NCBI GenBank assembly: GCA_023229525.1
Contig: JALNZC010000009.1
Location: 1,282 to 65,281 of the forward strand
Source: Bacteroidales bacterium
Lineage (GTDB): Bacteria; Bacteroidota; Bacteroidia; Bacteroidales; FEN-979
Direction: 5' to 3'
Length of the DNA: 64,000 nucleotides
Under the pieces are notes generated by a model. It did not search any database, was not told where the DNA came from, and saw only the letters and a list, made by a program, of their open reading frames with translations. Positions 33,046 to 45,539 of this stretch are shown piece by piece. The position numbers were made by a program, and so were the translations under genes. The stretch's first letter is position 1. Every line of letters starts with the position of its first letter.

Positions 33046-34032
33046 TTGAAAAAACTATCCGTAATCGCTTTACTTCTGGCTAATACTACGAGTTTCGGCC
33101 AATTTGCTCCACCTGCAGGTCAACCCGGGTCCGCAGCTATTAATAAAGATAGCTCCGTGATCATATCATGGGCCCTAACATGTAATGTCACAAGAGGTTA
33201 TATCAACATTGCCGATACTTTTTTAACCTACAATGGATCCAATAAAGCTTCCTACGGAAAACCTGAGAATGCCATTGGACCAGCGGATGACCTTGTTGTA
33301 AGTCTTGGTGACCGGGGAGAAGCCACATTAACTTTTAATCCACCCATCATCAATGGCCCGGGTCCGGACTTTGCGGTTTTCGAAAATGCTTTCAGTAGCG
33401 GATTCCTTGAACTTGCATTCGTGGAAGTCAGTTCCGATGGCCAGCATTTTGTACGGTTCCCGTCAGTCTCGTTAACAGAAACGGCCGACCAGGTTGGCAC
33501 CTTCGATACCCTGGATACAAGAAAAATTCATAATCTGGCTGGAAAATATAAGACTACATTCGGAACTCCTTTTGATTTACAGGATATATTGGATAGCGCT
33601 GGTATCGATATCAATAATATAACGCATATCCGGATTGTTGATGTCGTGGGTTCGATCCAATCTCCATTTATTTCCTACGATGCCATGGGTCATCCTGTCA
33701 ATGATCCCTGGCCAACACCCTTTGATACTGGTGGCTTTGATCTCGACGCTATTGGTGTTATTCACAACTATTCTCAAGGTATTGATGATCGGAAAAATAT
33801 TACGAATATCCAACTTTATCCAAATCCGGTTACAAAGAAAGTTAAGTTCTTTTCCAACGATCCCACAGAATGCATGGTGATAATAACAAACACCGGCGGC
33901 TATCAGATCTATCAGGAAAAATTTATCCACCAAACCACCCTGGACCTCTCTTCTTTTCCTTCAGGAATATTTTTCTCCCGTTTTTCCTGGAAAGATGGTA
34001 CAACCATTACAAAAAAAATTGTCAAAGAATAA
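33046..34032 (+). CDS. T9SS-secreted protein resembling cobalamin-locus surface proteins (BtuJ-like)
   Basis: VSLGDRG..F..PI.NGPGPDFAVFENAF..LELAFVEVSSDG, GFDLDAIG; T9SS CTD; lies before btuB/btuG-like genes; promoter element TACATTTG at 33000. Confidence 0.7.
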   Translation: MKKLSVIALLLANTTSFGQFAPPAGQPGSAAINKDSSVIISWALTCNVTRGYINIADTFLTYNGSNKASYGKPENAIGPADDLVVSLGDRGEATLTFNPPIINGPGPDFAVFENAFSSGFLELAFVEVSSDGQHFVRFPSVSLTETADQVGTFDTLDTRKIHNLAGKYKTTFGTPFDLQDILDSAGIDINNITHIRIVDVVGSIQSPFISYDAMGHPVNDPWPTPFDTGGFDLDAIGVIHNYSQGIDDRKNITNIQLYPNPVTKKVKFFSNDPTECMVIITNTGGYQIYQEKFIHQTTLDLSSFPSGIFFSRFSWKDGTTITKKIVKE

Positions 34033-34058
34033 CGACCTCCTGAAGTAATTCAGAGAAT

Positions 34059-35999
34059 TTGACTGATCCTAGAAAATATCTTAAATCCACTCTTTTTGTT
34101 GGTTTGCTGTTAAGCTTGTTTTTGCCGGTCGCTGCGCAGAATTTTAAAGACACATTACGGTTGCCTGTATTTGAAGTAAAATCAGGTTTTATCAGTGATA
34201 ATCAGGGATTCAAAAAAGAAAGATTGGATTCCAGTATACTCATCCATCATATTGATGCCGATCTATCAAAAATTCTGATTCAAAATTCTACGATTTTCAT
34301 AAAATCCTATGGAAACGGTACCCTCTCAACACCCTCCTTCCGTGGAACTACAGCCCAACATACTCAGGTTGAATGGAATGGTATTAACCTCAACTCTCCC
34401 ATGCTCGGACAAATTGATCTTTCTCAGATTCCTGTTTCCCAGTTTGATGAAATCGAAATCTTATATGGTGCGGCAGGGATATCAAGGACCAGTGGAGCCT
34501 TCGGGGGCGTAATCAACATGGCAACGAACCCCAACTGGGATCAACGCTTAAAAGCTACGTTTGCACAGACCATCGGGAGTTTTAACACATATACAACCAA
34601 TTTAAATTTTATTGCAGGAAACCCATCCTTTCAATCGCAAACAAAAGCAAATTATTCATCATCTCTTAACGACTTCACTTATTTCAACGATTACCTCGGA
34701 ACCAATGTCAAACAACAAAATTCAAGCTATTCATCTGCCGGGATAACCCAGGAGTTGTTCTGGAAAATCAAAGATAAACACCTCATTTCTGGCCATATCT
34801 GGTACAACTTCAATAACAACAATCTTCCCCCAACAACAACGGAATATGATCAAAATCACATTGAAAAACAAAAAGATGAGGCTCTTAGAGCTGTACTCGA
34901 ATATAAATTTGTAGACCGCAAATTCAATGTTATGATCAGGTCCTGCCTGGTTGATCAATATATGAATTACCAACTCGACAGCAACCTGAATACCACACAC
35001 CGATATTATTCCTGGATAAATCGGATCCGTTGTTCATTTAATGGAATCCGTAATCTCACTATCAAACCTGGACTTGATTTTACCCGCGATTGGGTTAATT
35101 CTGATTCATATGATGGGGTTAAAACACGGAATACCACAAGTTTCTATGCGGAGATTAGTCACAACTTCAAAAATACGATCAAAACTTCTCTGATCGTTCG
35201 TGAAGACTTAATCAACGAGAAATTCCTACCAATAATTCCGGCTCTGGGTTTGGAATACGCTCCATTCAAAAAAATAAACTGGAATCTTACTTTTAACCTC
35301 GCACGCAACTACCGTTATCCCACCCTGAACGACCAATTCTGGATCCTCTCCGGTAATCCTGATCTTAAACCGGAGACCAATTATACCATCGAAATCGGGA
35401 GTAATTATCATCGGTTGTCCGCAAATGGTAAATTTTTTATCGAGGCAAATATTTCCGGATACTATATGTGGATTTACGATATGATAACCTGGCTTCCGGT
35501 AGAAGGAAGTAATCTCTGGAAACCGGAAAACATCGATGAAGTTCTTGCAAGAGGACTGGAAATTGGATTAAATCTGAAATTGGAGGTGATGGGATTTTAT
35601 CTGGCGATGACAAATAATTATGCTTTTTGTAAATCTACATATGAGAAAGCCAACTCAGAATATGATAAAAAAATAGGGAAGCAATTGATCTACGTACCGA
35701 TGCATAATTTGAACAGTACTTTGTCATTGGAACGATGGAAATTTTTTCTCAGTTATAATTTCTGTTTTGTCAGCGACCGCTTTACAGGAAAAGATAATCT
35801 CTCCATCATGCCTGCTTATTGTCTTTCCAATATTCTTTTCGGTAAAAATATCTCAATGAAAGATTTTCTTTTATCTTTACAAATCGAAATAAACAACGTG
35901 TTTAATCTCGATTATCAATCTATTGCTAATCGCCCTATGGCAGGATTGAATTACGCTTTTACACTTAAATTCTCATATAGCACTCCTCGGAAAAGATGA
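34059..35999 (+). CDS. TonB-dependent receptor, BtuB-like
   Basis: Plug IFIKSYGNGTLSTPSFRG..HTQVEWNG; R.PTLND..W..GNPDLKPE; C-terminal barrel strand. Confidence 0.85.
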   Translation: MTDPRKYLKSTLFVGLLLSLFLPVAAQNFKDTLRLPVFEVKSGFISDNQGFKKERLDSSILIHHIDADLSKILIQNSTIFIKSYGNGTLSTPSFRGTTAQHTQVEWNGINLNSPMLGQIDLSQIPVSQFDEIEILYGAAGISRTSGAFGGVINMATNPNWDQRLKATFAQTIGSFNTYTTNLNFIAGNPSFQSQTKANYSSSLNDFTYFNDYLGTNVKQQNSSYSSAGITQELFWKIKDKHLISGHIWYNFNNNNLPPTTTEYDQNHIEKQKDEALRAVLEYKFVDRKFNVMIRSCLVDQYMNYQLDSNLNTTHRYYSWINRIRCSFNGIRNLTIKPGLDFTRDWVNSDSYDGVKTRNTTSFYAEISHNFKNTIKTSLIVREDLINEKFLPIIPALGLEYAPFKKINWNLTFNLARNYRYPTLNDQFWILSGNPDLKPETNYTIEIGSNYHRLSANGKFFIEANISGYYMWIYDMITWLPVEGSNLWKPENIDEVLARGLEIGLNLKLEVMGFYLAMTNNYAFCKSTYEKANSEYDKKIGKQLIYVPMHNLNSTLSLERWKFFLSYNFCFVSDRFTGKDNLSIMPAYCLSNILFGKNISMKDFLLSLQIEINNVFNLDYQSIANRPMAGLNYAFTLKFSYSTPRKR

Positions 36000-37102
36000 G
36001 AAAATTATTTGCATATACACTTTTTTTACTTTCCTTGATTTTATGTTTTCCTTCGTGTAGTAAACAATCCATACGTGAAACATCAGTCGATTCGGACCCT
36101 TCTGACACTTCACTGCTCCCAACAACGTATCAACACGGAATATTCGTCATTAATGAAGGAAACTTTAACTGGGGCAATGCCTCTGTCACATTCATTGATT
36201 ACTCCGCCAATAAGACGGTTCAGAAAATCTATCAAAAGGCGAATGCGCGGAATCTTGGCGACGTCGCAGAATCAATGAAGATCTTCGGAGCGCTTGGATA
36301 TATTGTTGTAAATAACTCAAACCGGATTGAGATTGTTGATTTCAAATCTTTTAAATCGCTTAAAACCATTACAGGATTGCATTCGCCCCGTCATATTGAA
36401 TTCGTAGATTCAAATAAGGCATACGTCACAAGTTTACAAAGAGGAATTTCCATCCTCGATCTTCATTCAAATGAAATTACAGGAACAATCGCTGTCCATG
36501 GCTGGACCGAGAACCTTGTCCGTTTCAATCACTATATGTTTGTTGCAGCTATTGGTGAATTTAACAAAACCAGTTCGAGAAGAAAAGCACAAATACTTGT
36601 TATAGATACCCGGACTGATCAGATCATCGATAGTATTCCGACAGGAAAGGAACCTATCGGTCTGGCAATTGATAATAAAGAGAAGATTTGGGCTTTATGT
36701 TCAGGTGGTTACGATTATTTTGAAATACCGTCAATTATAAAAATCAACCCTGAACTGAGGAAAGTCGAGGAAGTATTTAAATTTCCAACAACACAGAGAG
36801 TTCCGAGCCGGCTTTCCATTAATACTTTAGGCGATACACTTTATTTTCTCAATGGGGGTATTTTTCAAATGCCCATTCATTCCAAAGGGGTGCCGGCATT
36901 TCCTCTTGTTAACCCAAACGGCCGGTTATTTTATGGGCTTACCATTCATCCGGTTACCGGTAACATTTTTGTTAGTGATGCTCTCGACTATGTCCAGAAT
37001 GGTGTAGTTTATCAATACAGCCCTTCCGGTACCTTAATCAGCCAATATACTGTCGGGAGAATTCCCGGATCATTTTGTTTTACTCCTGATGATCTGCATT
37101 AA
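35996..37102 (+). CDS. BtuG-like (YncE/DUF5074) beta-propeller lipoprotein
   Basis: Lipobox FPSC; GIFVINEGNFNWGNAS, LGDVAESM, YIVVNNS, DALDYVQNG, GRIPGSFCF. Confidence 0.85.
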   Translation: MRKLFAYTLFLLSLILCFPSCSKQSIRETSVDSDPSDTSLLPTTYQHGIFVINEGNFNWGNASVTFIDYSANKTVQKIYQKANARNLGDVAESMKIFGALGYIVVNNSNRIEIVDFKSFKSLKTITGLHSPRHIEFVDSNKAYVTSLQRGISILDLHSNEITGTIAVHGWTENLVRFNHYMFVAAIGEFNKTSSRRKAQILVIDTRTDQIIDSIPTGKEPIGLAIDNKEKIWALCSGGYDYFEIPSIIKINPELRKVEEVFKFPTTQRVPSRLSINTLGDTLYFLNGGIFQMPIHSKGVPAFPLVNPNGRLFYGLTIHPVTGNIFVSDALDYVQNGVVYQYSPSGTLISQYTVGRIPGSFCFTPDDLH

Positions 37103-37746: not shown

Positions 37747-37824
37747 TTTTAGCAGGAATTTTCAAGCCAAAGATAAAGTTTTGAATGAAAATATTTTCTT
37801 AATTTTGAATTGAATTTCAATAAA

Positions 37825-38097
37825 ATGGTCAAACAAAAAGAGGAATCGTCTTTACTGAATAAAAATGACATTATTAGTCAGCGAGAGCTTATACTTTTTA
37901 ACGATGATGTCAATACCTTTGATTTTGTGATTCAATGCCTTATTGAAATATGCAACCATGATCGGGAACAAGCCGAACAATGTGCGCTCGTTACACATTT
38001 CAAAGGTAAATGTAACGTTAAAACAGCTGGGTTTTATGAATTGAAACCGCTTCTCGATGAGATGAGATTAAGAGGATTAACTGTTTCAATTGAGTAA
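37825..38097 (+). CDS. clpS: ATP-dependent Clp protease adaptor ClpS
   Basis: LILFNDDVNTFDFVI..L..IC.H...QAEQC...H.KGKC.VK. Confidence 0.92.
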   Translation: MVKQKEESSLLNKNDIISQRELILFNDDVNTFDFVIQCLIEICNHDREQAEQCALVTHFKGKCNVKTAGFYELKPLLDEMRLRGLTVSIE

Positions 38098-38239: not shown

Positions 38240-38272
38240 TTTGCTTTCGCTATATGAACAAGTCTATATTTG
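38240..38272 (+). promoter_or_regulatory. Consensus Bacteroidota promoter driving the candidate ncRNA
   Basis: TTTG(38240-43)-N21-TATATTTG(38265-72), with no credible + strand CDS downstream. Confidence 0.75.
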
Positions 38273-38277
38273 ACTCC

Positions 38278-38596
38278 TCAAGCGAGCGATAAAAGGTCCG
38301 CAAATGAAAACGGAAGGCGAAAGCAGTTTTCGCAAGGAAACAGCACTCCCGACCAGCCAGGAAAAAGCAGAAACCGCAAGGTTCTCGCCGATGATAGGCA
38401 AGTTTCAAGAGCAGGGTTCTTCGACAGTGCACCTGAAAGGGAGGCAGCATCAAGGAACCGGGAAGAAAGGGAAGGGGAGACCCTAAACAAGTAAACCAAC
38501 CACAATAACAGTAGCTTGAACGCTCCAGGCGGTTACGGCCGCAAGGATGTCGGGATGGGAACCACTTCGGCCAGAGGAGGTTCCCATCACTGCTTT
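38278..38596 (+). ncRNA. Candidate large structured ncRNA (~320 nt), family not recognised
   Basis: GC-rich island with its own promoter, several GNRA-capped hairpins, long-range helices (38347-53/38549-55; 38404-09/38515-20) and a 3' hairpin at 38554-38588. Confidence 0.7.
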
Positions 38597-38672
38597 ATAG
38601 CCTTGATGTAATCTTCAGGATTTTGACCAACTGCTTGTGAAATCAATGATATGAGCTCCTATGAACAGACTC

Positions 38673-39437
38673 TTAAAGAATAAATGGGAAAAGAGCCTTT
38701 CGTTTAGTTGGGTATTCGGGAAATATTTCTTTATACCATGAATGATGATGCAATGCCCGTGGCATCAGATTTACCAGGGTCCAAATCGCAAAAGCAAGGG
38801 CTGGCAAACTCCACGTTAATAAAGCAAATCCAGACCACTCTAGAATCTCACCAAAATGATTGGGACATGAAACAAACCTGAAAAATCCTTTTTGGGGGAT
38901 GACATAGCCAGTTTCATCCGGTTTCCGTAAATGGATAAGAATATTATCAGCTTCCAAGTTAATAAACATCCCAAAAAAGAAAATTATTATCCCTCCAATA
39001 AATCTAGGATCAACAAAAAAAGATAACGGGTATGTTGTTTCTGTAGCCATCGTCCCCAGATAATAGCCGTTTATAAAGCCATTCATGAAATTAAAACCAA
39101 TAGCCATGCAAACAATAGCCACTGGCATCTTTTTCCCTTTGGTTCTTAAACGGAATGGAAATATAAGGGTTCTGTTTACGTAATGCAATAACCAAAGAGA
39201 GAAAAATATCCATGTCACAGTAGGATGAAGACCCGATCCGAAAAGATAAAAACCGGTGAAAAATAGCAATGCGGGTAATTCCATGATGATCCAGCCTGTT
39301 CTGTTATCGATCATGGCTCCCCATTTTTTACTGGCATGACGTCCATAAGGAGCGACAATCCGGATAACAATTGGGAAAATAAAGATTGCTATGGCAATCC
39401 AGGTATATACTATTAAGTAAAATGTAGATTCTTTCAT
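38673..39437 (-). CDS. 3-oxo-5-alpha-steroid 4-dehydrogenase (steroid 5-alpha-reductase family)
   Basis: APYGRH, GWIIMELP, HYVNR, SCPNHFGEILEW, NLMPRA..HH.WY, YP..RKA..PF. Confidence 0.92.
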   Translation of the reverse strand: MKESTFYLIVYTWIAIAIFIFPIVIRIVAPYGRHASKKWGAMIDNRTGWIIMELPALLFFTGFYLFGSGLHPTVTWIFFSLWLLHYVNRTLIFPFRLRTKGKKMPVAIVCMAIGFNFMNGFINGYYLGTMATETTYPLSFFVDPRFIGGIIIFFFGMFINLEADNILIHLRKPDETGYVIPQKGFFRFVSCPNHFGEILEWSGFALLTWSLPALAFAIWTLVNLMPRALHHHSWYKEIFPEYPTKRKALFPFIL

Positions 39438-41627: not shown

Positions 41628-43275
41628 GGGTCTGCTGATTTTATCTAGAAGCCTTATTATTCAATGATTTTAGCTATCTTTACATGGTAAATACTGCAAA
41701 GAAATATGGCAAAAGCACAAAAAACCCGTGCATCTAAACATCCGTACATCAGTTCAAATCAACTAACCCTGGTCGGATTTGAGAGTCCATTTTCACAATT
41801 CTTGGATCCAAACAACCGGTGGGTTGTTCTGGCGCAGAAGATTCCCTGGGATGTTTTGGTAAGCACCTATGAACATAGCATGCAAAACAGCAGCATGGGA
41901 GCAGAGGGGATCAACCCAAGGGTTGCGATCGGAGCGATGATCCTGAAGCACATTTGTAATACCAGTGATAGGGAAACCGTGATGCTGATTCAGGAGAACA
42001 TGTACATGCAGTACTTCATTGGGTACAGCAGTTTCACTACAGAACAGCCGTTTGATCCCTCTTTATTTGTAGAATTCCGTAAGCGATTGGGCATCGAACA
42101 GATCAATTCCATCAATGAGAAAATACTTGGATTATCTCCCAGCAACCCAAAACCGCCATCTGACATTTCCAGCGACACAAACGATCCGGATAACACTATA
42201 TCTGAAGCTGGCCCTCCAATGCCTGAACAAGTAACCACAGAGATTGTCCCGACACATAAAGGCAGGCTGATCACTGACGCCACCGCATGCCCGCAAGATA
42301 TTGCTTATCCCACTGACCTGAACCTTCTGAATGACGCCCGTGAGAAATCGGAAGAGTTGATTGATAAATTGTATGATGCAGAACTCCACTGTACCAAACC
42401 AAGAACATACCGTGAGGTTGCCCGGAAAAATTATCTGAAAACGGCCCAGTTGAAAATCAAGTCAAAGAAGCAAATTCACAAAGCGGTCAGGCAGCAACTG
42501 GGGTATTTGAAAAGGAACATAAGAAACATCAACCGGTTGTTGGATCAATACAACAAGTTCCCTTTAAAGTGGAAGGACCACAGATATCTTCTGGTGATCA
42601 CAACGTTCTATGAGCAACAGCGCCAAATGTTCAGAGAGGGCAGCCATAAGATTGAACACCGGATTGTGAGCATTCATCAGCCCCATGTCCGGCCAATTGT
42701 ACGAGGGAAAACAAATGCTTATGTTGAATTTGGTGCAAAGATCAATGTGTCCATCATGAATGGGTTTGCGTTTCTGGATGATCTTTCCTGGGAGGCGTTC
42801 AACGAAGGGACCCGGTTGATGTCAACCGTAGAAAAATACAAACAGCGGTTCGGTTATTATCCTGAGGAAGTTTTGGCTGATAAGATATATTGTAACCGGT
42901 CCAACAGGGCAGCGTTGAAGTTGCTTGGAATAAAGCTTAGGGCCAAGCCCCTTGGAAGGCCAAAGGCAGTGGATGTGGAACACGTAAGACCGGGCGAAAG
43001 AAATCCAATCGAGGGCAAGTTTGGACAAGCCAAGACCGCCTACGGATTAAACCGGATCAAGGCAAGACTGGCACCAACAAGCGAATCATGGATTGCCACA
43101 ATTATCCTGGTTCTCAACCTGGTTAAATTAACCGGGTTGGGAGTCTATTGCCAAATTTTATCGGTGATAACTTTTTCAGCAGAATGGTTGGTGGAATTCT
43201 CCCCACTAAAACTATCCCAGGTATTTTTCGTGGAAAATTTCGATTTGAAAACCAGTTGACTTTATCAGCAGACCC
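41628..43275 (+). mobile_element. IS5-family insertion sequence (1,648 bp)
   Basis: Terminal inverted repeats GGGTCTGCTGAT...ATCAGCAGACCC, flanked by TA on both sides (41626-27 and 43276-77). Confidence 0.92.
41706..43259 (+). CDS. IS5-family DDE transposase
   Basis: NRWV.LA..IPW, IQENMYMQYF, FDPSLFVEFRKR, DAT, EFGAK, ADKIY, RNPIEGKFGQAK. Confidence 0.95.
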   Translation: MAKAQKTRASKHPYISSNQLTLVGFESPFSQFLDPNNRWVVLAQKIPWDVLVSTYEHSMQNSSMGAEGINPRVAIGAMILKHICNTSDRETVMLIQENMYMQYFIGYSSFTTEQPFDPSLFVEFRKRLGIEQINSINEKILGLSPSNPKPPSDISSDTNDPDNTISEAGPPMPEQVTTEIVPTHKGRLITDATACPQDIAYPTDLNLLNDAREKSEELIDKLYDAELHCTKPRTYREVARKNYLKTAQLKIKSKKQIHKAVRQQLGYLKRNIRNINRLLDQYNKFPLKWKDHRYLLVITTFYEQQRQMFREGSHKIEHRIVSIHQPHVRPIVRGKTNAYVEFGAKINVSIMNGFAFLDDLSWEAFNEGTRLMSTVEKYKQRFGYYPEEVLADKIYCNRSNRAALKLLGIKLRAKPLGRPKAVDVEHVRPGERNPIEGKFGQAKTAYGLNRIKARLAPTSESWIATIILVLNLVKLTGLGVYCQILSVITFSAEWLVEFSPLKLSQVFFVENFDLKTS

Positions 43276-45539
43276 TAAATATCTTTTATCTGCAAACCGG
43301 TGATTCCGGCCAATCGGTGAATACAATCCCGATCGTATTTGTGTGAGTTCTCGGTATGGATGGTCTCACCTTTCTTTAAAAAGATGCTGTTGTTCAGGTA
43401 TGGACTGGTGACTTCAATATCTGCAAGGGCCCTGAGGTGCATTTCAATCCTTGCATGTGCAACATTATAAAACGAATAGTGGTCGAATTGGTCAGGATTT
43501 AAATTGGTTTTAGCGTGATGATTTACAACACGCAATATGTTTTTATTAAAAGCAGCCGTTGTCCCTTGTTCATCATTATAGGCTTTTTCTAAAATCCGGA
43601 TATCCTTCACCATGTCAAATCCGATCAACAATTGGTCACCCGGATTCATCCGGGATCTTAAATTCAGCAGGAAAGATGTTTCCTCTTTTCCGGTAAGATT
43701 TCCCAATGTGCTGCCAAAAAAACAGATCAGCTTGTTTCCATTACCAGGAATGACGTTGAAATGCTTCATAAAATCGGAAAGGATGCCATGGATCCTGATC
43801 CCGGGATACTTCTTTGAAAGCATTCTGGCAGAATTTAAAATGGTTGTTTTGCATACATCAACAGGGAGGTAGACCAGCCGTTCAATATGATTACCGGGCA
43901 TGGCTTCCAGAAGGATGGAAATTTTCGAACAATCACCGCTGCCAAGTTCAACAATATTTTTAACTGACAGACCATTCACAATCCGCGGGGCTGCTGCCTT
44001 CAATATAGATTTTTCGGTTCGTGTGGGATAATATTCCGGTAACCTTGTGATCGCTTCAAAGAGCGCCGAACCATTATCGTCATAAAAAAAACGGCTCGAT
44101 ATATATTTTTGGGGAGATGAAAGACCTTTTAAAATTTCAGATACAACTTCTTTCTCGCCTTCATGAATCAGGAAATCAGTGATTTCAACAGGAGTGTCGG
44201 TTCTGGTCAGCGATTCGGGATCATTCATTTTATATCCTGGTATTTGGTAATGTTCAGGAATCCCGGTTTCAACAGGGTTATCCGGGTCGCTGCTCCATTC
44301 GAACCAGCCTCCGTCGTAAACCGATACCCGTGGCCACCCCATCAGCCATGCATTGAACCAGGCTTCGCTTCCACGCCATCCGGTACCGCAATAAAAAGCC
44401 AGATGTTTATCGGGTGTAATCCCGCTTTTTATCCAGTTTTCCGCTATTTCATGGTATTCACGGCTGGTCTGATCAACATTCCTGTAATTCTCCATGTGAT
44501 ATGCATCTGAACCGCAGTCGGCAAAGATTGCTCCGGGGATCCTGCCTTTTTTCTCAATATAGTTATACCCGCTTACTTCGCCTGTGAATTCCGGCCAGCT
44601 CCGTACGCATACCAGTTTCGATCCCGGTGAGGCAATGATTTTTTTAGCTTCAGGCGTATCTACTGCTAATTCGGGATGAACCGGGATGATTGCCCCGAAT
44701 TCAGGAACCGGAATTTTTGGCTCATCATGGTAAGAAATTTCAAAACCGGCATCCTACCACGACTGAAACCCACCATTGAGCACCCTGACATCTTTCACCC
44801 CCGCATACATCATAACAAAGGCGCAGCGGACTGCTCCTATATCGCCTGCAGCGCTGCCGGGAAACGGGTCCTTGATATCCGGCGACATATACTTGCCATA
44901 CATTACCACAGTTGTGTCTGCGGTAATTCCATGTGCCTCCAATGCTTCTTTAAGTTCCTGGGGGCTCCTCCTGTTCCATGTTTCCGGCGCCTCAATGGCC
45001 ATGGTATCCATGTCGATCGCCCCGGGGATATGGCCGCTCAGGTAGGCCTCCCGGTTGCGGTAATGGGCATGGACAACCACATATTTACCATTGATGTAAT
45101 GGGGCGGCCGTCCTCCTGAAATAAGCAGGTTTACCCATTGTGCCGGAACCAGTTTCTCAAAGCGTTCCAGCTTTCCCACAGGAAGTTCAGGATACTCCGA
45201 CCATTCCTTTGCAAACCGGTTGTAAACAGAAACATGGTCATATCCCGATCTTAAAAAACGTTCGGCCGCTTTGACTGAATCTGTCTCGTTGTAACCATAG
45301 ACAATGATCTGATGTTCCGGGAAAATATGTTTATGCCGGACGATCTCTATCCAGTCGATATATTTCGTCCATTTAACAGGCAAACTCCTGGAATGCTTGA
45401 TGTGCCCTCCACGGGGCTCATTCTGCAACTGCCAGCCATTATAAGCATCCACAGGCCTCACGTCAATGATCCGGATTTCCTGCTTTCCGATCAGTTGCAT
45501 GAGTTCACCTGTTGTCACTTCATTTAAAACATGGACCAT
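43275..45539 (-). pseudogene. EanB-type multi-rhodanese sulfurtransferase fused in frame to an EanA/EgtD histidine methyltransferase; in-frame TAG at 44754-44756 and C-terminus cut by the IS
   Basis: The frame continues through the TAG: LNGGFQSW*DAGFEIS..GEVSGYNYIEKKGRIPGA..CGSDAYHMENY..FYCGTGWRGS (EanB motifs). It then reads K.ISSRFFYDD.GS.LF..IT.LPEYYPTRTE, ELGSG, FFGSTLGN, IHTENSHKY (EgtD motifs). Confidence 0.85.

Follow-up and report, generated by a model that had tools for sequence, protein, structure and literature searches.

The window (the whole stretch of 64,000 nucleotides of Bacteroidales DNA that was analyzed) harbors, in the 575 nt that separate clpS from a convergent steroid 5-alpha-reductase-like gene, what is almost certainly a stand-alone gene for a non-coding structured RNA, extending from position 38278 to approx. 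38596 (Table 1). The gene neighbors of this RNA family and its distribution among genomes suggest that the RNA works with PhoH2, and we regard it as an even bet that this protein is its functional partner, with the RNA serving either as a bound partner or modulator or as a substrate. Few bacterial RNAs are both large and highly conserved, and such RNAs have often led to new biochemistry; what is new here is the proposed PhoH2 link for a family absent from Rfam. PhoH2 is described in PMC7390352 as a widespread protein of poorly characterized biological function, in which a PIN RNase is joined to an RNA helicase that is ATP-dependent and probably hexameric.

Table 1. Features of the RNA gene and its immediate neighbors (positions in the window).
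Feature	Position	Strand	Basis or remark
clpS	37810..38097	+	upstream neighbor, outside the RNA; Pfam ClpS, E 6.6e-16; genus synteny
Promoter, sigma-ABfr-type	38240..38272	+	−33 TTTG 38240-43; 21-nt spacer; −7 TATATTTG 38265-72
ncRNA gene, ~320 nt	38278..38596	+	start placed at ~38276-38279, end at the terminator U-tract; both ends inferred, not mapped
P1, 5′ strand TCAAGC	38278..38283	+	pairs with 38514-38519; 114 sequences
Core loop, 5′ strand GAG-N-GATAAAA, invariant	38284..38294	+	N covaries with the opposite strand
P2, 5′ strand GGT	38295..38297	+	pairs with 38499-38501; closes the variable interior
Variable interior, four-way junction P2/P3/P7/P8	38298..38498	+	~200 nt here
GNRA-capped arms of the interior	38317-24, 38326-41, 38372-83, 38415-59 with 38432-41, 38473-84	+	
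P2, 3′ strand ACC; core loop, 3′ strand ACAATAACAGTA (38502-13); P1, 3′ strand GCTTGA (38514-19)	38499..38519	+	
3′ hairpin, UACG-type tetraloop (loop 38534-37)	38523..38546	+	
Terminator-type hairpin GATGGGAACC/GGTTCCCATC with short U-tract	38554..38596	+	pairing and double changes over 90 sequences
Steroid 5-alpha-reductase-like gene, convergent	38673..39437	−	neighbor only; Pfam Steroid_dh, E 8.9e-52

A first-pass annotation, made from the letters of the window, had described a GC-rich island bounded by a promoter and a strong hairpin, and every motif that it named was recovered in place, including the terminator arms starting at 38554 and 38579. The island is evident from the GC content (0.51-0.53 across 38300-38599 vs 0.29-0.31 immediately upstream), and folding of 38270-38600 gave z = −2.56, with 1 of 100 shuffles equally good. 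The promoter was confirmed with its boxes and 21-nt spacer, the sigma-ABfr consensus being that given in PMC7366714. Both boxes are kept in the genus homologues, in which the spacer sequence is variable; among the 113 family members with enough flank, the −7 box is present in 110 and a −33 TTG at a spacing of 19-21 in 102. In the terminator hairpin 93% of cells are paired and 12 of 13 pairs show double changes (90 sequences). The U-tract is short here (TTT, 38594-96) and longer in homologues, and a strict terminator scan listed no plus-strand site. The gene is chromosomal and present as a single copy in the source genome.

The fold was analyzed in 19 distinct homologues from the genus. Double changes were found in 39 pairs of a 67-pair model, a level reached by none of 500 shuffles, and pairing dropped to 28-47% in slid controls; the model was drawn from the same 19 sequences, whose relatedness inflates the covariation score. 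Covariation, which the first-pass annotation had named as a check, is thus present, and its pairing of TCAAGC with GCTTGA is real; this pairing forms the closing stem P1 (94% paired, 7 double changes). In the family at large (114 sequences), pairing reaches 99-100% at five positions of P1, where C-G/U-A and A-U/G-C swaps occur. This stem, of only 6-7 bp, joins the 5′ end to a point ~80 nt before the 3′ end. P2 is 100% paired with 6 double changes in the genus, and 92-96% paired over the 114 sequences.

Between P1 and P2 lies an 11×12-nt purine-rich internal loop that is almost invariant (GAG-N-GAUAAAA opposite ACAAUAAC-N-GUA), an invariance partly built in by the motif-based selection of members. 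The two variable positions of this loop covary (MI 0.49; U opposite A in 26 of 27), and the RNA has in all ~20 near-invariant unpaired positions. We take the GAG opposite GUA to be reminiscent of the loop E submotif of 5S rRNA; the source genome itself gave no credible 5S match. The CTACGG of the 3′ hairpin occurs in 58 of 87 representatives, partly owing to pattern selection. The interior differs more than threefold in size across the family (P1-to-P1 span, 165-563 nt). A boxA-like motif, GTTCTT[TA]RA, occurs in the interiors of 15 of the 87 representatives (e.g. L349, L255 and L251) vs 0.5 expected by shuffling; this match to the boxA consensus could be an antitermination signal or a structural module.

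All of the predicted GNRA hairpins were present (at 38317, 38326, 38372, 38415/38452, 38432 and 38473), with an ambiguous arm register around 38312-38350 in our model. Two long-range pairings suggested earlier, TCCCGAC/GTCGGGA and TTCAAG (38404)/CTTGAA, were rejected, each being intact in 1 of the 19 homologues, that of the window itself. The pseudoknot or switch envisaged between GAGCG and CGCTC is unsupported: in the genus the two segments are 87% paired but show no compensatory changes, and full pairing is seen in only 14 of the 87 representatives. A CAGUAG/UUACGG pseudoknot likewise showed no covariation in the genus homologues.

GNRA loops in the 87 representatives number 227 on the RNA strand vs 5 on the reverse. 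Stop codons interrupt each plus frame in all 19 homologues, no minus frame is open in all of them, and their lengths differ modulo 3. The overlapping short ORFs, whose conservation had been named as grounds for doubt, are therefore not conserved, and the strand-specific tetraloops, the covariation and the absence of a conserved ORF support the earlier view of a trans-acting structured RNA.

Sequences of the RNA are present in metatranscriptomes. In data set X1 we found a 236-nt contig identical to 38315-38550, and X2 and X9 yielded contigs of 198 and 217 nt with 6 and 9 differences. Contigs of RNA relatives were present in all four runs examined (four studies; 11 runs listed), and the long pieces all fall within the RNA; they carry no strand, end or level information, and the runs had been selected with the RNA as query, so that bare flanking genes give no expression ranking. 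A transcript, whose absence would have spoken against a non-coding RNA, thus exists, and the conserved promoter, the covariation, the varied neighbors and the confinement of the contigs to the RNA bear out the proposal that it is transcribed independently.

Homologues are found in the genus and across Bacteroidota. BLAST detected the RNA segment in 20 of 36 genomes of the same genus (68-78% identity, in most cases across the greater part of the segment) and in none of 24 genomes from other families. With model R1 the count was 21 of 39 genus relatives, with a further 3′ fragment at a contig end in G007. In the inspected part of the genus locus set the RNA is syntenic between clpS and the reductase gene, with an inserted ORF in one case. 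At each of the 14 RNA-negative clpS loci inspected the whole RNA unit is absent behind clpS, and the next gene is the reductase gene at 12 of them and a different gene at 2. A quick tree required 7 state changes for RNA presence, but counting the starred branches alone leaves a single forced change. The RNA is dispensable, and it was probably lost more than once.

Two loci retain what may be traces of such losses. Directly after clpS at L330 (genome G016) there is a leftover of the terminator 3′ arm where the RNA was deleted, and L207, which has only the 3′ motif, may be another RNA remnant. At L029 (G027:C75, 1214-2594) an insertion-sequence-like ORF pair occupies the place of the reductase gene, right after the RNA terminator.

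Beyond the genus, R1 matched 17 of 150 genomes of the order. Model R2, which covers the 3′ module only and pairs columns 30-32 with 50-52 one column off register, so that weak matches may be lost, matched 32 genomes of the order and 3 of the phylum, out of 150 in each set; the 5′ motif lies upstream in 16 of the 18 new order loci examined. A search of GTDB genomes with the 3′ pattern returned at least 120 loci, the titled ones nearly all from Bacteroidota; among the matches listed were environmental Bacteroidales, Cyclobacteriaceae (including Cecembia lonarensis LW9 and Pleomorphovibrio marinus), Roseivirga, Chitinophaga and Flavobacteriales MAGs. The 5′ motif was present in the available flank of 85 of the 120 listed loci; 40 loci had ≤300 nt of flank. 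Both RNA ends were recovered at 124 of 161 loci (115 unique). The length in the family is 239-647 nt (median 390). The family occurs in approximately a fifth of a family-spread Bacteroidales sample, and also in cultured Cyclobacteriaceae; the unpublished genomes G467 and G536 support no claim made here.

Two RNA copies were observed in genomes G149, G112, G160, G069 and G027 and as the locus pairs L205/L228 and L210/L279; G027, which also has two clpS and two phoH2 genes, may be a mixed bin. In order family f4, two loci (L341:2026-2129 and L348:2045-2149, RNA strand) keep P1, the 3′ hairpin and the terminator around a different core loop.

The neighbors of family loci are of many kinds and in both orientations (Pfam on 150 of 164 flanking ORFs). 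A SRAP gene adjoins the RNA, upstream or downstream depending on the lineage, in L209, L211, L217, L220, L240, L242, L253, L267 and others, and relA/spoT, dnaG, clpS and a serine hydrolase gene also recur. The recurrence of SRAP, relA, dnaG and the serine hydrolase looks like lineage synteny, and it weighs against singling out phoH2 among the neighbors. We rejected a cis-regulatory leader or riboswitch, which the first-pass annotation had already thought unlikely: the gene that follows is convergent here, and in the family the longest downstream ORF lies on the same strand at 49 loci and on the opposite strand at 37, belonging to many families and to no consistent class.

Comparison with known RNAs supported the earlier view of an unrecognized RNA family. 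Rfam 15 gave no match within 38278-38596 at E ≤ 10 and none in the 64-kb window at gathering score; among the families left unmatched by the RNA are RNase P, tmRNA, SRP, 6S, OLE, raiA, ROOL, GOLLD, HEARO, ribozymes and riboswitches. The same held for family loci (none at gathering score at 20 loci and none at E ≤ 0.5 at 20 others), tRNAs and a weak YrlA match outside the RNA excepted. The housekeeping RNase P, tmRNA and SRP RNAs of the source genome sit elsewhere (C20, C64 and C90). A Y-RNA-like identity was discarded, as the source genome contains no TROVE protein, and the models Bacteroidales-1 (RF01693) and 6S-Flavo (RF01685) have no match in it at E ≤ 1.

Whether the class is also new to the literature, as the first-pass annotation had ventured, is less clear-cut. 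The RNA is absent from Rfam, and its exact family is nowhere described in the literature consulted, figures or supplements of bioRxiv preprints being places that might contain it. However, section 2.5 of one preprint (bioRxiv 10.64898/2026.10.21.760802, October 2026) nominates a related PhoH2-associated multistem RNA in Bacteroidota (cluster #1,412,455), reported as adjacent to phoH2 at 148 of 326 loci and as 357 nt long in Pedobacter mucosus; it also names another 14 clusters located 5′ and 13 located 3′ of phoH2. Like the candidates in that text (this cluster and those of Fig. S14), our RNA is a long multistem molecule of Bacteroidota that shows covariation, has no Rfam family and is expressed. 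We consider it most likely to be of the same general type, and it may even correspond to one of the clusters in the preprint.

Within our own family, six members with the canonical core lie 0.15-0.85 kb from phoH2, in three arrangements: (i) in tandem upstream of it (L204), (ii) divergent (L206, L469 and L470), or (iii) in tandem downstream (L250 and L481). Three of them come from a screen of 133 family loci and three from 70 phoH2 loci outside the genus, a set made up of 30 top-scoring and 40 hand-chosen loci, five of the latter from the family of the sister RNA described below. None of the Bacteroidales loci among the 133 has phoH2 in its flank. The source genome encodes a full PIN_4-PhoH protein, whose gene (C89:16286-17623) is unlinked to the RNA (on C8), which speaks against the link. 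In this detachment from phoH2 the source locus and the examined Bacteroidales members differ from the type of cluster #1,412,455, and since the two genes do not lie within 5 kb of each other here, the RNA was not filed under that cluster.

A sister RNA was recognized through L340, a weak R2 match of the same layout with another internal loop, located upstream of a PIN-PhoH gene. Within its genus, 35 of 49 genomes contain a match to this sister family, and in family f147 it lies upstream of phoH2 at 5 of 5 loci (L461-L465) and at 24 of 25 (L398-L422). These sister RNAs (L340, L398-L422 and L461-L465) often come in tandem pairs, in which the two copies are spaced by ~700 nt and each has its own promoter and terminator. 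They measure 334-374 nt to the terminator stem, compared with the 357 nt of the Pedobacter motif of cluster #1,412,455 (bioRxiv 10.64898/2026.10.21.760802), and are rather likely to be the preprint's PhoH2-associated cluster.

Features common to the sister RNA and the RNA of the window are P1, the 3′ UACG hairpin and the type of terminator. When R2 was applied to the five phoH2-upstream sister loci, it matched them at E 3e-5 to 0.03, and a profile of the sister RNA matches 18 of 87 canonical representatives vs 0 of 87 reversed and 0 of 87 shuffled ones, a similarity limited to the 3′ third, for which the shuffles do not control for generic terminator hairpins. In contrast to the canonical family (240-650 nt, with the invariant GAG-N-GAUAAAA / AAUAAC-N-GUA loop), the sister has no such loop; the most conserved element of the family is thus absent from the RNAs most frequently found beside phoH2, a point against the link.

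The distribution of the two genes is one-way. In the genus, phoH2 is present in 23 of 23 RNA-positive vs 10 of 17 RNA-negative genomes (p=0.001, or 0.006 without two poor assemblies), and in the order in 32 of 32 vs 87 of 118 (p=0.0003); the genomes are non-independent kin, which inflates all of these p values. Five phoH2 losses, at about four tree positions, are seen in assemblies that retain clpS. Counting against the link, in two RNA-positive genomes (G054 and G089) phoH2 looks broken or split. The gene phoH2 often occurs without the RNA, and the RNA was never found without phoH2 in these 23 genus and 32 order genomes, which fits an RNA that PhoH2 binds or processes. As a control, clpS was also enriched (29 of 32 RNA-positive vs 77 of 118 other order genomes, p=0.004), an imperfect comparison in that clpS lies near the RNA in several lineages; lifestyle or kinship therefore accounts for some of the co-occurrence.

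A very small invariant core that resembles a docking site, carried by stable arms that vary freely, would suit an RNA that is bound or processed by PhoH2. In the mechanism that we propose, the invariant loop would form an irregular non-canonical helix, the core helix and the 3′ hairpin would present a putative protein-docking surface, and the GNRA- and UNCG-capped arms would provide a stable scaffold around it. The RNA would most likely bind PhoH2 as a decoy or modulator, as 6S RNA does with RNA polymerase; alternatively, it may be a dedicated substrate that is matured or turned over by PhoH2. In mycobacteria, PhoH2 is paired with the small protein PhoAT and its target is 5′-AC[A/U][A/U][G/C] (PMC7390352). 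This motif is not invariant in the core of the RNA, which counts against the partnership.

A bolder version, which we put forward tentatively, is that a phylum-wide class of RNAs of 240-650 nt, with ours as its type member, forms a ribonucleoprotein with the PhoH2 ring and tunes or sculpts PhoH2 in trans, even where the RNA gene has moved away from phoH2; as part of the same tentative claim, the RNA would have a decoy or RNA-antitoxin role that in mycobacteria falls to PhoAT. Were this class to exist, it would amount to a new RNA-controlled RNA-decay machine. If the PhoH2 link itself is true, PhoH2 gains a natural partner and an orphan RNA gains a testable function, and the adjacent candidates of the preprint are extended to unlinked trans-acting members overlooked by neighborhood screens. 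If it is false, what remains is a clearly delimited class of orphan RNA, whose invariant core is sharp and which exists naturally in short and long versions.

The PhoH2 partnership has to be weighed against the rather unlikely case of an orphan "ornate" RNA of the OLE or raiA kind, i.e. an abundant ribonucleoprotein scaffold whose partner is the ribosome, a membrane protein or another RNA-binding protein, with phoH2 adjacency being inherited synteny. The RNA is mostly single copy, with its own promoter and varied neighbors, and its conserved closing stem and variable peripheral arms resemble the raiA subtypes described in PMC12968392, raiA being likewise an orphan ncRNA with optional peripheral stems. 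The phoH2-upstream sister without the invariant loop and the enrichment of the clpS control also point this way. However, such a scaffold leaves unexplained the phoH2 adjacency in three arrangements and the 55 RNA-positive genome counts, all with phoH2. The raiA motif RNA is moreover described as an abundant ~200-nt RNA of Bacillota and Actinomycetota with two pseudoknots (PMC12968392), whereas our RNA has no supported pseudoknot. OLE, ROOL and GOLLD are similarly large, multi-junction, A-rich and of obscure function (PMC12286853, PMC5737381), but as presented there they occur in other phyla, and their models fail to match this RNA.

An improbable alternative is that of a second RNA-polymerase-binding RNA, which like Ms1 or CoRP would store or modulate the polymerase. 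The 240-650 nt size, closed ends, central loop and dispensability are in keeping with it, and Ms1 (~300 nt) and CoRP (516 nt) are precedents (PMC11077062); like our RNA, 6S, Ms1 and CoRP stand alone, are dispensable and have closed ends, and they work through binding to a single enzyme, RNA polymerase (PMC11077062, PMC7366714), which is the kind of action that we propose with PhoH2. Against this stand the branched interior and the short closing stem of our RNA, whose P1 is just 6-7 bp, and the description in PMC11077062 of one abundant RNAP-binding type per species.

That place appears to be taken in the source genome, in which a 198-nt structured element lies between zapA and rny (C81:16887-17084, minus strand, = L359:2180-2377; z −4.4). 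Typically, 6S RNA is a ~190-nt rod at the zapA-rny locus, and judging from synteny and fold this element is probably the 6S RNA of the genome. The Rfam 6S models (RF00013 and RF01685) miss it, a blank that is uninformative, given that the same models also miss the 6S RNA of B. thetaiotaomicron. In view of this separate 6S-like gene we rejected our RNA as a 6S substitute.

Similarly improbable is an RNA-only oligomer or nanocage of the ROOL/GOLLD type held together by A-minor and loop contacts. The many A-rich loops and tetraloops, and a tRNA near three family loci, would agree with such a structure, since ROOL and GOLLD cages rely on A-minor contacts (PMC12286853) and are often found in prophages near tRNAs, with pseudoknots and kissing loops (PMC12286853, PMC5737381). 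The more than threefold variation of the interior and the generic GNRA and UNCG loops, among which no conserved kissing loop was seen, argue against it. Nor is the family phage-borne: BLAST was empty against 50,697 phage and 72,556 plasmid records, so that a phage or plasmid origin was discarded, and a pattern search of viral contigs gave 38 matches with no full-length member, three having 3′ fragments only. In these IMG/VR contigs (L384:1494-1556, L390:1-52 and L379) the 3′ RNA fragments are fused to unrelated sequence at or near contig ends; they are probably chimeric assemblies.

The first-pass annotation had also allowed for a ribozyme-like element, for which we found no positive evidence. 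A ribozyme with the invariant internal loop as active site, onto which the 3′ UACG hairpin docks, could account for the ~20 near-invariant unpaired positions, and CCGUAG in some family members is complementary to CUACGG, but the docking pairs are intact in 4 of 19 homologues with no compensatory change, there is no Rfam ribozyme or intron match and no mobile, intron or repeat context, and we consider it very improbable. A domesticated guide or scaffold RNA of a mobile element (HEARO/omega-, reRNA- or retron-like) whose protein has been lost is barely conceivable: several large RNAs first regarded as orphans have since turned out to be scaffolds of this sort (PMC11061315) and presence is patchy, but the RNA is a single syntenic copy, the Pfam matches of 150 of 164 flanking ORFs include no nuclease, transposase or RT, and the phage and plasmid records gave no match. 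HEARO itself was an orphan RNA before it was recognized as a mobile-element scaffold.

Elsewhere in the window, genes at 33046-37102 (plus strand) encode a T9SS-tail protein, a TonB-dependent receptor and a DUF5074 beta-propeller lipoprotein (Pfam), which we take to resemble a cobalamin-uptake cluster. A DDE transposase gene (41706-43259, plus strand) abuts an ORF (43275-44495, minus strand) that combines an EgtD-like methyltransferase domain with an N-terminal rhodanese fragment.
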